This document shows positions 54,430 through 64,000 of a DNA stretch of 64,000 bases, in pieces. This stretch comes from Methanobacteriota archaeon (GTDB lineage: Archaea; Thermoplasmatota; Thermoplasmata; SG8-5; JAGLSY01). Positions within the stretch are counted from its first letter, which is position 1, and the number at the start of each line of letters is the position of its first letter. The position numbers and the translations under genes are program-made. The stretch spans positions 288,001-352,000 of the forward strand of contig JAEHCQ010000001.1 in the NCBI GenBank assembly GCA_020696385.1, in the 5' to 3' direction. Below the pieces are notes generated by a model. It ran no database searches. It was not told the DNA's origin and saw nothing but the letters and a program-made list of their open reading frames with translations.

Positions 54430-54825
54430 TCATTTTGAAAAATCGAACCAATAAGGCATTTTACGAAACCTATAATGATCCTTTATCTGCTCTCTGTAAA
54501 GCTCCTTGTAAAACTCATTGAACTTCCTGGCATGAAGCACACCTTCCCTGGTTATGAAGATCTTGTACCTGCCATCCACCTTCTCCATCTTGATAAAACC
54601 ATCTTCCAGAAGTGCCTGGATGACCTTTTCCGTCATGTAATGATTGGAGCGAATTTCATGCTTGATATCTTCCTTGGACAGGGGGTGTGTGAACTCCTCA
54701 AGAAGCATGTCCAATTTTTCTTCCAATCCTGTCTGATAAAGGTCTATGCCCAGCTCGGATACCAGGCGATTGAGAACAAAACAAGAATATATCTTTGAAT
54801 CCTTGTATCTTCTCTCTTCGGGCAT
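54430..54825 (-). CDS. Winged helix-turn-helix protein
   Basis: LSKEDI...LLEDGFI....GRYKIFITREG wing pattern. Confidence 0.65.
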   Translation of the reverse strand: MPEERRYKDSKIYSCFVLNRLVSELGIDLYQTGLEEKLDMLLEEFTHPLSKEDIKHEIRSNHYMTEKVIQALLEDGFIKMEKVDGRYKIFITREGVLHARKFNEFYKELYREQIKDHYRFRKMPYWFDFSK

Positions 54826-56099: not shown

Positions 56100-56462
56100 T
56101 TATACATCATTCATCAATTTCTTCAGCTTCCTGTAGAATTCTTCCTCATCTATTCGGCCTTCTGAATAATATCTGTAAAGTTCCTTTGTGGCCTGCTGTC
56201 TCAGATGGATCGCTCCAACAAAGACCACGATAGCCATTATTCCAAAGGATAATAGGGATATGATCCCCCCTATCCTTCCAGGGGTCAATTCCCATGATGG
56301 CTCACTGGTCTCTTCAATAGGTGTTCTCATAAAAAACCCCTCCTCTTCTACATTCTCCTGCGGCATTGGCATCATCAGATACATGCCAAGCAGGAATATC
56401 ACTGTACATCCGATCGCTGCTAAAGCGAATAGTATAGATCCTTTCTTCATCTCTATCACCAT
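56100..56462 (-). CDS. Small membrane protein with C-terminal SHOCT-like motif
   Basis: Two TM helices; LYRYYSEGRIDEEEFYRK. Confidence 0.7.
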   Translation of the reverse strand: MVIEMKKGSILFALAAIGCTVIFLLGMYLMMPMPQENVEEEGFFMRTPIEETSEPSWELTPGRIGGIISLLSFGIMAIVVFVGAIHLRQQATKELYRYYSEGRIDEEEFYRKLKKLMNDV

Positions 56463-56472
56463 AACCTACTAT

Positions 56473-56527
56473 AGTGGTCAAAGTTCATAACCAAAATGAG
56501 GAAAAATGACCACTTACTGGTCACTTT
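56473..56527 (+). repeat. Left 55-bp inverted repeat
   Basis: 48/55 match to the reverse complement of 62316-62370; outer 19 bp identical; contains TGACCA-N5-TGGTCA (56507-56523). Confidence 0.92.
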
Positions 56528-61181: not shown

Positions 61182-62231
61182 ATGGTCCAGGATTTCAAAT
61201 GCCAAAGCTGTGCCGCTCCCCTCAAATTCGATCCCAGTGAGAAAGGATTGAAGTGTGAATATTGTGGGTCCACAGAGGTCATCATGGTTGAGAGAAAGGC
61301 CATTCTGGAACATGACCTTTTTTCTGCCCCAGCCAACATTGGCTGGGGCACGAATACCAAGAGCATCACATGCGAATCCTGCGGAGCGAAGACATCGGCC
61401 GATCTGAAGATATCCGGGAATTGCGCCTTTTGTGGTTCCAATTTTGTCAAGGAATTGGAACCAGATCCAAACCTGATAAGGCCAGAGAGTTTGATACCCT
61501 TTTCAATAGAGAAGGACAATGCACTGTCTCTTTTCAAAAAATGGCTGGGTAAGGGATTTTTCCGTCCATCCAATCTAAAAAAGCTTGGTAGACTGAAGAA
61601 CATACATGGTATCTACATCCCCTTCTGGACATATGATTGTAATGCCCACTCAAATTGGACTGCCATGAGCGGTTATCATTACTACGTCACCGAGACCTAT
61701 AGGACAGATGAAGGAACAAAGACCAGACAGGTTCGAAAGACGAGATGGGTTCCATCGAATGGGAGAAGGCAGGGATTTTACAATGATGTTCTCGTGCCAG
61801 CTTCCAAAGGTCTGGATCATGATCTTGCAAGTAAGATATATCCATTCCATCTCCAACAATTGACACCGTACAAGTCTGAATTCCTCGCAGGCTGGATGGC
61901 CGAGGAATATGCAATATCATTGCCTGAAGGATGGCTGGTCGCACAGAAAAAGGTTCGAAGTTCAGAATACTCCGAATGCTCCAGAGATGTCCCAGGCGAC
62001 ACGCATACAGGGTTAAGCGTACACACGACCCTGACTGATCCAAAATACAAGCATGTTCTACTCCCTGTCTGGGTCGCCTCCTATCATTATAAGAAAAAAC
62101 TTTATCATTTTCTTGTCAATGGACAGACTGGAGAGGTACAGGGCGAGGCTCCGATATCTTGGCTCAAGGTCGCAGCTGTGATCCTTGCTGTAGCGGGTGT
62201 GGTCATGACTATCTGGCTATTATCGAATTGA
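61182..62231 (+). CDS. Zinc-ribbon protein with C-terminal TM helix
   Basis: Four CxxC motifs, P..LIPF, YIPFWTYD, LLPVW and VNGQTGEV.GEAP.S..K; C-terminal TM helix. Confidence 0.82.
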   Translation: MVQDFKCQSCAAPLKFDPSEKGLKCEYCGSTEVIMVERKAILEHDLFSAPANIGWGTNTKSITCESCGAKTSADLKISGNCAFCGSNFVKELEPDPNLIRPESLIPFSIEKDNALSLFKKWLGKGFFRPSNLKKLGRLKNIHGIYIPFWTYDCNAHSNWTAMSGYHYYVTETYRTDEGTKTRQVRKTRWVPSNGRRQGFYNDVLVPASKGLDHDLASKIYPFHLQQLTPYKSEFLAGWMAEEYAISLPEGWLVAQKKVRSSEYSECSRDVPGDTHTGLSVHTTLTDPKYKHVLLPVWVASYHYKKKLYHFLVNGQTGEVQGEAPISWLKVAAVILAVAGVVMTIWLLSN

Positions 62232-62315
62232 TGCTCCTCCTTCTTTATCATATATCATAATATGATCATTGTATTATGATTCAATGATACTACTGGCATA
62301 TATTTTTGATTCTGA

Positions 62316-62370
62316 AAAGTGACCATAAAGTGGGGATTTTTGCTCAATTTAGTTATGAACTTTGACCACT
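62316..62370 (-). repeat. Right 55-bp inverted repeat
   Basis: Reverse complement matches 56473-56527 at 48/55 positions. Confidence 0.92.
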
Positions 62371-62417
62371 CTATTTAGTATTAGACTTCGGGAAAAGGGG
62401 TCTAGGATGTGAAAAAA

Positions 62418-62546
62418 ATGAACTACAATAAAAAAGTCGTGCAGGCATTGAGAAAGGTTGGCCGAACGGTCAGATCAGAGCTAACAGCAGCAGAAAGAGC
62501 GAGCCCAGCTGTATTGAGACATGTGGCAGCCCACTGGGGCGGTTGA
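62418..62546 (+). CDS. Micro-ORF 1 (42 aa, basic)
   Basis: MNYNKKVVQALRKVGRTVRSELTAAERASPAVLRHVAAHWGG; GGATGTGA SD-like element upstream. Confidence 0.5.
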   Translation: MNYNKKVVQALRKVGRTVRSELTAAERASPAVLRHVAAHWGG

Positions 62547-62571
62547 TCAGGAAGATGATGGAGGTAAGAAC

Positions 62572-62691
62572 ATGATAAAAATATTGATAGATGCGATACA
62601 CAAATCTGTTAAGGACGATGATACAGTTGGAAAAGACAAGAAAATAAGCCCTTCGCTCAATTGCATCCCTCTTTACGATAGAGCAGTATAA
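62572..62691 (+). CDS. Micro-ORF 2 (39 aa)
   Basis: MIKILIDAIHKSVKDDDTVGKDKKISPSLNCIPLYDRAV; GGAGGT SD 6 nt upstream. Confidence 0.55.
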   Translation: MIKILIDAIHKSVKDDDTVGKDKKISPSLNCIPLYDRAV

Positions 62692-62708
62692 AGTGGGAGA
62701 GTGCCAAG

Positions 62709-62840
62709 ATGATCGTAACAGTAAAACATGACCTTTATGCTGATCTTCAGAGGATCGAGAATAGGGGGAAAAAGAATGCAAAGAAATTTTCTATCCTCAA
62801 TATCCTGAGCAGATCTAAAAGAAGAACTGGAGGGAGATAG
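62709..62840 (+). CDS. Micro-ORF 3 (43 aa, basic; similar to the N-terminus of the 63759 ORF)
   Basis: MIVTVKHDLYADLQRIENRGKKNAKKFSILNILSRSKRRTGGR; GGGAGAG SD; motif shared with 63759. Confidence 0.65.
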   Translation: MIVTVKHDLYADLQRIENRGKKNAKKFSILNILSRSKRRTGGR

Positions 62841-62948
62841 ATGAGTGATCAGGATGAATTTACAAACACCATTAGACTCCTTCTCTTTGGAGAGGATGAT
62901 GAAGATAAAATAGCAGATATTGAGATAGCAGACCATTCGCCAATATGA
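62841..62948 (+). CDS. Micro-ORF 4 (35 aa, acidic)
   Basis: MSDQDEFTNTIRLLLFGEDDEDKIADIEIADHSPI; GGAGGGAG SD; ATG abuts the previous TAG. Confidence 0.55.
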   Translation: MSDQDEFTNTIRLLLFGEDDEDKIADIEIADHSPI

Positions 62949-63032
62949 ATGGTCGACTATCTCCCCTCATTTTGATCATTATTACATTTTATACACCATG
63001 TTTAAAATATTTTCATCCACATATCCCGGCTC

Positions 63033-63575
63033 ATGCAGGGTTTGGAGATAAAAAGAATTCCCAGAGAAGAGCTGATTGACAGGGTTACGATATTTTCCTA
63101 CGAATCAGACAGCTATTATCGTGTGACCATCAATGAAAAGAATGATGGGTGGTCGATAGATCTTAAGCGTAAGGAGTTCCCCCAGACCTTTATAAAAAAT
63201 GATTCCACAGATAAGCTAGTACATGATTTCAAGGGAGATTCAGAGATATATCTGGCATACCTTGATGGAAAGGAAGCTGGTCAGTTGCAGATCGAGTTCC
63301 AAGAATACAATAAAAGCATAAGAGTTTGGGATATAGATATCTGGCCAGGATACCGTAGAAAGGGTATCGGAAAGGCTCTTATGGACCTGTGTAAGAAGAG
63401 AGCGGTGGATATCAATGCCAGACGTATAGTTCTGGAAGTGCAATCATCGAACTCAAAGGCAATTGAATTCTACCTGGCCATGGGCTTCAAGCTCATTGGA
63501 TTGGATGGAAGCCATTATTGTAATGATGATATGGATAGAGGAGAGGTCAGATTGGAGATGGCCATACACCTTTGA
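63033..63575 (+). CDS. GNAT acetyltransferase (streptothricin-acetyltransferase-like)
   Basis: YRRKGIGKALM and LEVQSSN..AI.FY..MGF.L.GLD motifs. Confidence 0.9.
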   Translation: MQGLEIKRIPREELIDRVTIFSYESDSYYRVTINEKNDGWSIDLKRKEFPQTFIKNDSTDKLVHDFKGDSEIYLAYLDGKEAGQLQIEFQEYNKSIRVWDIDIWPGYRRKGIGKALMDLCKKRAVDINARRIVLEVQSSNSKAIEFYLAMGFKLIGLDGSHYCNDDMDRGEVRLEMAIHL

Positions 63576-63758: not shown

Positions 63759-64000
63759 ATGGGTCGCGACATATACGCAGATTTGGAAAAGATAGAGGAA
63801 CGCGGAAAGCGTAAGAAAAAGGGATTCCTTTCTTTCATGGGCGGAAAGGAGCCAGGGGAAGAATCGCCCCCAGTTCACACAGTTTCTGCCTTCAGTGGTA
63901 ACCCGGACCCACCGACAGCTCCAACTCCCAAGCCAAAGCCTGTGGAGCAGGAGATCATTGAGACCGAGGAATGGATACCACTCAAGGGTCGAAAATTAAA
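63759..64000 (+). CDS. Partial CDS running off the window; basic N-terminal helix then Pro-rich linker
   Basis: GGGTGA SD; open frame MGRDIYADLEKIEERGKRKKKGFLSFMGGKEPGEESPP... to the window end. Confidence 0.7.
   Translation, partial: MGRDIYADLEKIEERGKRKKKGFLSFMGGKEPGEESPPVHTVSAFSGNPDPPTAPTPKPKPVEQEIIETEEWIPLKGRKL

Follow-up and report, generated by a model that had tools for sequence, protein, structure and literature searches.

The window is the whole 64,000-nt stretch of DNA that was analysed, and all positions are counted from its first nucleotide. An 801-nt gap between a 349-aa gene (stop at 62231) and a GNAT acetyltransferase gene (start at 63033) is filled by four plus-strand ORFs. 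ORF1 (62418-62546; 42 aa, net charge +6) stands first behind a conserved upstream element and is followed by ORF2 (62572-62691; 39 aa), ORF3 (62709-62840; 43 aa, net charge +9) and ORF4 (62841-62948; 35 aa, net charge -9). The spacers between them are 25, 17 and 0 nt. The start of ORF4 directly adjoins the TAG of ORF3, and with a spacer of 0 nt the two ORFs therefore lie in one frame across this single TAG. The coordinates bear out the preliminary description of this DNA, which had listed four consecutive plus-strand ORFs of these lengths and spacings and had set a strongly basic ORF3 against a strongly acidic ORF4. The transcription unit probably ends in a T-rich stretch read from the sequence after ORF4 (62957-62995, plus strand), of which the first 16 nt complement the SD region of ORF4 (62825-62840; inverted pair I14). 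A scan of the locus for bacterial-type promoters and terminators returned nothing beyond chance.

Start sites were scored with a 5-mer SD score learned from the gene starts of this genome; the consensus was taken from gene starts because 16S rRNA is absent from this assembly. The SD-like strings quoted earlier, one for each ORF, are all present, and all four starts score at least 2.09, a level found in 46% of 1260 long-ORF starts and 12% of 4610 random ATGs. The SD-like site of ORF1 (62405-62412, plus strand; score 2.09) lies 5 nt before the ATG and is part of a leader that the same genus places before a different small gene as well. Scores were 3.15 for ORF2 (SD core GGAGGT) and 3.12 for ORF4, and 18 of 18 small-ORF starts in relatives scored 2 or more. 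Alternative starts are available to ORF1 (in-frame GTG at 62409) and to ORF2, where an upstream in-frame ATG at 62521 would give a 56-aa form overlapping ORF1. The protein collection has ORF2 on record as the 56-aa form only, and exact matches to ORF1 and ORF3 are absent from it.

Within 561 nt, four non-overlapping ATG-initiated ORFs, each 35 aa or longer and all on one strand, were obtained in 0 of 5000 dinucleotide shuffles and 1 of 20,000 random genome windows; the four-ORF arrangement is not chance. Hexamer scores were 0.48, 0.63, 0.32 and 0.68 for ORF1 to ORF4, all at or above the 96th percentile of 2945 decoy small ORFs (median -0.34; median for 40-codon pieces of real genes, 0.64). A 103-aa antisense ORF scored -0.54. 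In protein-guided alignments with saturated synonymous sites, pN/pS was 0.57 in the called frame of the first-ORF set (1.05 and 1.02 in the shifted frames), 0.59 for the ORF4 pair (1.01 and 2.11) and 0.57 for the ORF3-like set (0.83 and 1.31), with 0.26 for the GNAT control. A pN/pS of about 0.57 amounts to weak constraint. ORF3 and a 129-aa protein encoded downstream were compared over 20 codons, giving pN 0.30 and pS 0.95 in frame versus 0.41/0.48 and 0.41/0.43 in the shifted frames. The small-protein reading had been made to depend on conservation of frame and SD site in related genomes, and both are kept. The four pieces, which it had been thought might be fragments of one decayed gene, do not align as parts of a single gene.

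The upstream element (62300-62396, plus strand; about 100 nt; alignment of 11 copies), a putative promoter/operator or leader, was matched by a sequence model at E 7.7e-23. It contains TGACCA-type half-sites at 62319-62325, 62331-62337 (degenerate) and 62362-69. A putative archaeal promoter box, AT-rich and TATA-like, lies just before the first half-site (62297-62307, plus strand), and AT-rich stretches occur at the same place in other copies in the 11-copy alignment. The right arm of a long inverted repeat (62316-62373) sits inside the element. The distance from this arm to the ORF1 start, previously given as 47 bp, needs correction: the arm ends at 62373 and the ATG begins 44 nt later. The left arm (56470-56527, minus strand) is a second, opposite-facing copy of the element before the gene for a 120-aa small membrane protein (56462..56100, minus strand), in which a 'DUF1707 SHOCT-like' match (E 4.8e-4) falls below the cut-off. 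A transposon reading of the 5.8 kb between the arms was rejected, since the arms are promoter copies, one facing outward and one inward, that each precede a gene of their own, and the intervening genes (radical-SAM, DUF4130, GNAT and, by eye, a 278-aa dehydrogenase-like ORF) are ordinary. Mobile-element genes were searched for nearby and none was found.

At least four copies of the element are present in this genome, the other three preceding a transporter-like ORF and the genes of two small proteins, one of them a membrane protein and the other with a hydrophobic stretch at its N-terminus. Within the order, the model matched 4 of 4 genomes in family f1, 9 of 9 in f4, 2 of 2 in f2 and 1 of 2 in f3; outside it, weak matches only were obtained, in 8 of the 133 genomes searched. 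An SD-led ORF of 38-47 aa is first behind 17 of the 29 copies examined. Behind that first ORF comes a bactofilin gene or an ORF3-like gene, the latter often followed in turn by a gene of 49-57 aa. Bactofilin Pfam matches were above the cut-off in both of the 2 proteins scanned, and this genome gave none. In f4 a first ORF of 38-43 aa stands directly before the bactofilin gene, and at bactofilin loci the gene behind the first ORF starts within 0-20 nt of it or overlaps it. Three element copies in G002, the closest relative, have no first ORF behind them, so that the first ORF cannot be the sole factor acting on the element. Folding of the element with RNAalifold gave 6 pairs, 0 of them compensatory, at -1.1 kcal/mol and with no covariation support, and the locus had 0 Rfam matches at E<=1. 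A pattern scan of genome contigs with the element core yielded at least 119 stretches, nearly all of them chance matches in unrelated bacteria, with one Thermoplasmata record.

ORF1 and ORF2 were compared with first ORFs of related genomes by Smith-Waterman alignment, and scores were set against shuffled sequences. The N-terminal 18 residues of ORF1 match the 47-aa first ORF of a genome of the same genus, G001 (0 of 5000 shuffles reach the score); for the C-terminal 24 residues, the second half, no relative was detected. The 3' half of ORF1 was also tried as a frameshifted copy of the relatives' C-terminus and this was discarded, as the other frames give alignment scores of only 15-21 (values taken without a shuffle control). 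ORF2 is related over its full length to the 44-aa first ORF of G003 (0 of 5000 shuffles), with a C-terminus 5 residues shorter than those of its relatives; against the 47-aa ORF of G001, 36 of 5000 shuffles reached its score. Direct comparison of ORF1 with ORF2 was not significant (2098 of 5000 shuffles). By these alignments, ORF1 and ORF2 are tandem members of a genus-level family of first ORFs. Both ends of the first ORF are kept within the genus, and the 90% cluster of the G001 first ORF has 5 members, all of them intact at 47 aa and with at most 4 substitutions. In family f4, first ORFs (38-44 aa) stand before a bactofilin or an ORF3-like gene. When a profile of 15 of them was applied, its score was reached by 351 of 1000 shuffles for ORF1, 240 for ORF2, 47 for the G001 ORF and 161 for the G003 ORF. 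ORF1 agrees with the f4 first ORFs in being first after the element, in size and in having an SD site 5-7 nt before its start, with ORF2 second in line; since the profile does not rise above shuffles, the link across families rests on position, size and SD and not on sequence. Structure prediction for ORF1 together with 16 first ORFs was uninformative, giving one long helix of moderate confidence (pLDDT 71) with no DNA-binding fold evident.

ORF3 contains the core motif D-[LI]-Y-x-[DE]-L-x-x-I-E-x-R-G with a basic tail behind it. In the family sharing this core, L, I and G are invariant and D, Y, E and R near-invariant, and ORF3 has all of these residues (D8, Y10, L13, I16, E17, R19 and G20). 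The motif, of about 30 residues, is alone in ORF3, occurs in two or three copies in longer relatives and heads the 129-aa neighbour (first part at 63759-64000, plus strand, continuing past the end of the window), where it is joined by a Pro-rich linker to a conserved C-terminal domain. ORF3 was matched to this neighbour by tblastn at E 8.5e-4 and to three ORF3-like proteins from another family of the order by Smith-Waterman alignment (0, 0 and 1 of 5000 shuffles). Within the order, 21 of 21 other genomes have the motif; in the rest of the class, 0 of 179 genomes from other orders do. At E<=1e-3 the family has 64 representatives, including multi-motif proteins and about 20 short ones (46-67 aa); at 50% identity the stand-alone proteins fall into about 20 separate clusters, and two of these (46 and 48 aa) share 40-48% identity with ORF3. 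Judged by these residues and relatives, ORF3 is a minimal single-motif member of an unnamed, order-specific family. A word-based homologue search with ORF3 gave no match, and no relative of the motif family was found in viral contigs.

The 129-aa neighbour has 37 relatives. Assignment of its C-terminal domain to SHOCT was rejected, the likeness being an impression only: the Pfam model matched 0 of 16 family members at E<=1. An ESM Atlas search with the 129-aa protein gave no usable match. A second ORF3-like gene of this genome, on contig C48, overlaps its downstream partner by ATGA. The predicted structure of this 57-aa partner is a confident beta-beta-alpha-beta arrangement (pLDDT 87), for which Foldseek returned no match at E<=0.001 and VIA-align returned generic matches only (best Z 5.7), so that the model points to no function.

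The single relative of ORF4 is found in G001, where a 41-aa ORF occupies the syntenic site (0 of 5000 shuffles by Smith-Waterman alignment). ORF4 is present in 2 of 22 genomes of the order, with relatives in one other species only; a word search for the family recovered just the two known members. The G001 relative is a separate ORF with its own SD site, in a frame different from that of the preceding ORF, and this acidic ORF likewise comes after a +9 protein. ORF4 was also considered as a diverged member of the 49-57-aa partner family and this was rejected (hhalign probability 0.3; HMM score not above shuffles).

G001 and G003 also have a cassette at this site, differing in its genes, and content at the site differs in every species of the genus. 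In G002, the closest relative (GNAT 83% identical), the syntenic position is an 80-bp gap with no cassette, from which it follows that the cassette is dispensable. G016 has only a 31-aa GNAT remnant after its cassette. The GNAT acetyltransferase gene itself (63033-63575, plus strand; Pfam PF00583, E 8.8e-16) has no SD site at its start (score 0.59), and its upstream stretch is kept in cassette-less G002; for these two reasons it probably lies outside the operon as a separate unit, and its transcript may be leaderless. At its core, the proposal of the preliminary description, a regulated operon of real small proteins, agrees with all the comparative evidence. Of the 19 loci that a metagenome scan with the GNAT protein recovered, every one encoded a distant generic acetyltransferase (27-44% identity); close relatives of the locus were not among them.

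Other readings were weighed against this evidence. It is highly improbable that the open frames arose by chance in a non-coding control region, or that ORF3, the TAG and ORF4 are read through as one 79-aa protein. The absence of ORF1 and ORF3 from the protein collection and the frame common to ORF3 and ORF4 point that way; the shuffle and window counts, hexamers, SD scores, pN/pS values, relatives and the constraint between ORF3 and its neighbour all point the other way, and no Rfam family was matched. Read-through by pyrrolysine insertion was rejected, TAG not being rare as a stop (229 of 1261 long ORFs, 18%) and neither a PylS match over the cut-off nor a tRNA with a CUA anticodon among the 36 tRNAs reported by ARAGORN being found in this genome, which is 94% complete. 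Quite unlikely, in turn, is a graveyard of gene fragments that are open and non-functional, with ORF1 a broken duplicate of a first ORF, ORF3 an orphaned N-terminus from a paralogue of the 129-aa protein and ORF4 a remnant left behind a nonsense TAG. Such decay would account for the match of ORF1 to its relative being limited to 18 residues, the missing 5 residues of ORF2, an ORF3 that is motif only, the single TAG within one frame, the GNAT remnant of G016, and a site whose content varies between all species of the genus and which in G002 is without a cassette. Stand-alone motif proteins of 46-67 aa, however, form about 20 clusters of their own, two of them 40-48% identical to ORF3, and the ORF4 relative in G001 is separate, with its own SD site and in another frame than the ORF before it; SD sites and gene-like hexamer scores have been kept in all four ORFs, and in-frame change is biased to synonymous sites.

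Two further readings concern ORF3 with ORF4 and the first ORFs. In one, ORF3 and ORF4, like ORF3-like genes and their partners elsewhere, would be addiction pairs in which a basic toxin is neutralised by a co-translated partner. Opposite charges (+9 and -9), abutting stop and start codons here and an ATGA overlap in the C48 pair, patchy presence among close relatives and the acidic ORF behind a +9 protein in G001 would all suit such a pair. It is unlikely all the same: ORF1 to ORF4 are without a match in Pfam, NCBIfam, PHROGs and PADLOC models, mobile-element genes are absent nearby, viral contigs hold no relatives, and the motif, found in every genome of the order searched and heading larger, widely kept proteins, is unlike a selfish module. 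The usual 49-57-aa partner, moreover, does not look acidic by eye and has no resemblance to ORF4. In the other reading, the first ORFs would be cis-acting leader peptides whose translation, and not whose product, sets downstream expression. A first ORF directly after the element in 17 of 29 copies, held at 38-47 codons and with no sequence recognisably kept between families, would be expected of a leader, as would the bactofilin-locus genes that start 0-20 nt behind it or overlap it. The probability of this reading is nonetheless judged low, given an in-frame pN/pS of 0.57 across the whole length, both ORF ends kept within the genus, 5 of 5 intact members of the G001 cluster with at most 4 substitutions, and downstream ORFs that have SD sites of their own; alternative RNA pairing with covariation was not found within the element, the region folded.

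The best explanation, and probably the correct one, is that the gap holds a genuine four-gene small-protein cassette with its own conserved upstream element. A genuinely translated operon governed by a common control element is likely, because the hexamers, the SD sites, relatives for every ORF, the frame-specific synonymous excess and the conserved element all argue for it. A DNA-binding regulator would act on the half-sites, so switching the cassette together with a regulon of small membrane- and envelope-related proteins, and one transcript would carry all four ORFs and end in the T-rich stretch after ORF4. Winged-helix candidates for such a regulator are encoded nearby, among them a 131-aa ORF at 54430-54825. 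ORF3 may act through the common motif, occupying the target of the multi-motif proteins (a membrane surface or a partner protein) and thereby modulating them, and ORF4 may pair with ORF3 through opposite charge. This specific mechanism of competition and partnering is advanced tentatively and is rather unlikely to hold in its particulars.

A wider proposal, at present doubtful, is that the element, the first-ORF micro-proteins and the motif family make up an undescribed, order-specific control circuit in which one regulator governs tiny proteins that tune membrane-associated scaffolds. The scaffolds would be bactofilin in some families and multi-motif proteins in all, and motif-only proteins such as ORF3 would be competitive modulators of their larger relatives. 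Thermoplasmata are known, as a class and not for this lineage in particular, for lacking a cell wall. No comparable operon, element or motif was met for Thermoplasmata in the portions of the literature available. In metagenome-assembled genomes small proteins are routinely overlooked, and here 2 of 4 ORFs are absent from the protein collection. The locus offers a DNA element that marks a candidate regulon across the order, a micro-ORF first in 17 of the 29 copies examined and a motif confined to the order. If the proteins are made, they would open up the control of membrane or cytoskeleton in a lineage that lacks a genetic system, and would exemplify motif-only proteins at work alongside larger relatives; should they not be made, the locus still shows fast turnover of a cassette between sister species.

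Several known systems were compared with the cassette. Type II toxin-antitoxin modules share with it tiny adjacent genes, coupled stop and start codons, opposite charge and patchy occurrence among close relatives; here, by contrast, no known toxin or antitoxin domain is present, and the family of the basic member is found in every genome of the order searched. Bacterial leader and arrest peptides are likewise short ORFs of fixed length translated first after a control region, and differ from the first ORFs in that the latter show constraint over the whole ORF, are followed by genes with SD sites and lie behind an element lacking covarying alternative pairing. In the cdrS-ftsZ2 operon of haloarchaea, a small regulator gene is co-transcribed with a cytoskeletal gene, and the 38-43-aa first ORF directly before the bactofilin gene in f4 resembles this arrangement; unlike it, this genome has no bactofilin match, and the first ORF is a predicted single helix (pLDDT 71) with no evident DNA-binding fold. 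Small proteins of archaea are known from ribosome profiling and mass spectrometry in Haloferax and Methanosarcina, and the four ORFs resemble them as un- or under-annotated genes of fewer than about 50 codons in an intergenic gap, with their own SD sites and often lineage-specific; they differ in standing four in a row behind an element present in most of the order, in including one with the motif of a larger protein and in being known from sequence alone. MicroProteins, a concept from plants and animals, consist of a motif only and modulate larger relatives by competition. ORF3 is like them in that, of the 129-aa protein whose gene lies 0.9 kb downstream, it has the N-terminal motif alone and not the C-terminal domain; it is unlike them in that the short motif-only forms here are an old, widespread branch of their own family, to which competition is extended by analogy. 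If the proposed circuit is true, it would be a prokaryotic counterpart of microProtein regulation.

ORF1 to ORF4, four small plus-strand ORFs in an 801-nt gap flanked by a zinc-ribbon/membrane ORF of 349 aa (stop at 62231) and by a GNAT gene (plus strand, start at 63033), were re-read from contig C11 of a 2.28-Mb assembly (94% complete), and the cassette that they form is likely real, translated and co-regulated. The four consecutive ORFs of the preliminary description were recovered exactly, with the same sizes and spacers: ORF1 (62418-62546, 42 aa), ORF2 (62572-62691, 39 aa), ORF3 (62709-62840, 43 aa) and ORF4 (62841-62948, 35 aa), separated by 25, 17 and 0 nt. An alternative GTG start for ORF1 lies at 62409, and use of an in-frame ATG upstream of ORF2 (62521) would give an overlap with ORF1. 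A bacterial-type terminator scan found nothing at the cassette end; the transcript likely ends in the T-rich stretch after ORF4 (62957-62995). A 16-nt inverted pair (62825-62840 and 62957-62972, 81% complementary) joins the ORF4 Shine-Dalgarno (SD) region with the stretch immediately past the ORF4 stop, and could mask the SD or aid transcript ending.

The inverted-repeat arms (58 nt each, 56470-56527 and 62316-62373, 86% complementary) are two copies of one promoter-type element, each facing its own gene. The right arm (plus strand) precedes ORF1 and ends 44 nt before it, correcting the 47 bp given earlier. The left arm (minus strand) precedes a 120-aa small membrane protein (56100-56462) with a weak match to 'SHOCT-like DUF1707' (E 4.8e-4, under the cut-off), and this pair is also present in the closest relative, G002. 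The 5.8 kb between the arms was rejected as a transposon because its content is ordinary genes. Contig C33 bears a third copy, in front of a gene for a ~100-aa protein whose N-terminal part has a hydrophobic stretch. A fourth, weaker copy outside the window (C11:2863-2946, E 1.6e-11) precedes a long ORF judged by eye to be multi-pass transporter-like; this fourth copy is conserved in G002 (C28:43815). The element comprises two inverted TGACCA-type half-sites with 5 nt between them and an invariant third half-site ~25 nt downstream. Since RNAalifold returned no compensatory pairs (0/6, -1.1 kcal/mol) and an Rfam search with the element gave no match, it is better read as a protein-binding DNA site. 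A sequence model based on an alignment of 11 copies matched genomes of the order in families f1 (4/4), f4 (9/9), f2 (2/2) and f3 (1/2); beyond the order, matches were weak only and came from 8 of 133 further genomes. At locus L002 (G000:C33, about 1575-1670), and also in G002:C29, a ~95-nt insert separates the element from the SD of a small secreted-type gene; blastn with this insert found 13 more partial copies across the genome, which marks it as a small dispersed repeat (MITE-like).

Downstream content was surveyed for 29 element copies. An SD-led ORF of 38–47 aa came first in 17 of them (the "first ORF"); a 30-aa case in G004 was doubtful, and behind the remaining 11 lay a transporter-like gene, a different small gene of membrane or secreted type, or no clear gene. 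An SD score of at least 2 was obtained for every one of the 18 small-ORF starts examined in relatives, and GGTGAT stood 5–7 nt ahead of the start in 14/14 from family f4. At seven loci the first ORF was followed by a bactofilin gene (Pfam PF04519 over cut-off in both proteins scanned), for which this genome gave no match; alternatively, it was followed by an ORF3-like gene, usually then by a 49–57-aa gene. In G016 (L039, contig C64) the order was first ORF, 27-aa ORF, two 49-aa genes and a GNAT remnant (C-terminal 31 aa, 71% identical to the GNAT following the cassette here), so the cassette-GNAT neighbourhood predates the family split.

ORF2 matched the 44-aa first ORF of G003 over its full length (score met by 0/5000 shuffles) and the 47-aa first ORF of G001 (36/5000), its C-terminus being 5 residues shorter than in these relatives. 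ORF1 also matched the G001 protein (0/5000), with similarity limited to the first 18 residues; its last 24 gave no match with all frames compared, and its predicted structure was a single helix of moderate confidence. Direct comparison of ORF1 with ORF2 was not significant (2098/5000). Linked through the G001 and G003 proteins, the two are read as probable tandem paralogues, ORF1 having diverged or been partly rebuilt. All five members of the 90% cluster around the G001 first ORF retain the full 47 aa (at most 4 substitutions), and one source labels this ORF a "hypothetical protein". A profile of 15 family f4 first ORFs left ORF1, ORF2 and the G001 and G003 proteins unrecognised (351, 240, 47 and 161 of 1000 shuffles reached their scores); first ORFs across families have place, size and SD in common, and shared descent was not borne out by the profile.

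In ORF3 a basic tail comes after a motif whose invariant and near-invariant residues are all present. Located 0.9 kb downstream, a 129-aa protein begins with this motif as well (tblastn E 8.5e-4), and so does a second ORF3-like gene, of 57 aa, on contig C48; the stop of the latter and the start of its 57-aa partner overlap by ATGA (C48:109450-109790; L094 1331-1671). Two tandem repeats of ~36 nt lie immediately upstream of the C48 pair, with no element copy present; the partner has a confidently predicted beta-beta-alpha-beta fold, and its model gave no specific match among known structures. A full-library profile search with the motif family returned 64 representatives, including ~20 stand-alone forms (46–67 aa), two of which (46 and 48 aa) are 40–48% identical to ORF3, and proteins carrying 2–3 motifs. 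The motif was found in 21/21 other genomes of the order vs 0/179 genomes of the class's other orders. In the 37 relatives of the 129-aa protein (78–196 aa), a Pro-rich linker stands between the motif and a C-terminal domain that is conserved; a SHOCT-like identity of this domain was not supported (0/16 members match Pfam SHOCT). Further relatives (P0049-P0055, P0080, P0083, P0088) included a 2102-aa protein in which stretches of the C-terminal domain occur 7 times, proteins of 300–400 aa with 2–3 motifs, and proteins of 83–105 aa with a low-complexity linker between two motifs. The sole relative of ORF4 (net charge -9) lies at the syntenic site in G001 and is a 41-aa ORF with a net charge of -4 (0/5000 shuffles); no others were found among 22 genomes of the order or by word search. 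Membership of ORF4 in the 49–57-aa partner family was rejected on profile comparison.

The syntenic sites differ within the genus. G001 has the element, a first ORF and an ORF4-like gene; G003 has the element and first ORF only; in G002 (GNAT 83% identical) the flanking genes are ~80 bp apart, and the element and ORF1-4, about 690–750 bp in all, are absent. Hence the site is an old one within the genus, its content varies by species and the cassette is dispensable. Three other element copies in G002 have no first ORF behind them, so the first ORF cannot be the sole factor reading the element.

Chance ORFs were considered as an explanation. Four ATG ORFs, each 35 aa or longer and none overlapping, shared a strand within 561 nt in 0/5000 dinucleotide shuffles and in 1/20000 windows drawn at random from this genome. 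Training on the starts of 1260 long ORFs of this genome gave an SD consensus that is the classical GGAGGTGA set, a score of 2 being attained by 46% of real starts vs 12% of 4610 random ATGs. The preliminary description had assigned each ORF its own SD-like site, and on this scale all four scored at least 2.09 (ORF1-4: 2.09, 3.15, 2.26 and 3.12); the flanking GNAT and 349-aa genes scored 0.59 and 0.87. In-frame hexamer scores were 0.48, 0.63, 0.32 and 0.68, none of them lower than the 96th percentile of 2945 decoy small ORFs, whose median was -0.34; 40-codon segments cut from real genes had a median of 0.64. A 103-aa antisense ORF over ORF1-3 (62470-62781, minus strand) had a decoy-like hexamer score (-0.54) and is best ignored. 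ORF3 and ORF4 would be joined if the intervening TAG were read through; a tRNA-CUA was not found among 36 tRNAs, a PylS search gave no match up to the cut-off, and TAG terminates 18% of long ORFs, which together make read-through unlikely.

A graveyard of gene fragments was weighed on substitution patterns. pN/pS was computed on protein-guided codon alignments for the called frame and two shifted frames, a coarse test only, given the saturation of synonymous sites among the species available. First ORFs (seven pairs) gave 0.57 vs 1.05 and 1.02 (shifted), ORF4 with its relative gave 0.59 vs 1.01 and 2.11, and ORF3-like genes (two pairs) gave 0.57 vs 0.83 and 1.31; in the called frame the partner family gave 0.29 and the GNAT control 0.26. 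Over 20 codons, ORF3 and the 129-aa neighbour (start 63759) gave pN 0.30 and pS 0.95 in frame vs 0.41/0.48 and 0.41/0.43 shifted. The dN/dS comparison with relatives proposed earlier thus placed the synonymous excess in the called frame alone (0.57-0.59 vs 0.83-2.11), and the substitution pattern is that of translated sequence under weaker constraint than the adjacent enzyme. Leader peptides were another alternative. The GNAT gene that follows has no SD, an AT-rich box lies ~25–30 nt ahead of its ATG (within 63000-63035), and this upstream stretch is conserved in G002, which lacks the cassette. GNAT probably forms a unit separate from the cassette, possibly leaderless; its protein may resemble streptothricin-type acetyltransferases. 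A toxin-antidote pair was the remaining alternative, and searches of ORF1-4 gave no match in Pfam, NCBIfam, PHROGs or PADLOC.

Because these libraries give ORF1-4 no name, the best reading of function rests on anatomy. ORF1-4 would be very small proteins regulated together, as part of a regulon with a membrane or envelope character. The role of ORF3 would depend on the motif that it shares with larger proteins carrying several copies, the simplest case being that it takes up their target, and ORF4 would be its partner of opposite charge; this joint mechanism is a doubtful proposal. As literature searches gave nothing on such an element, motif or operon, and no family model covers the ORFs, the cassette is put forward as an undescribed system.
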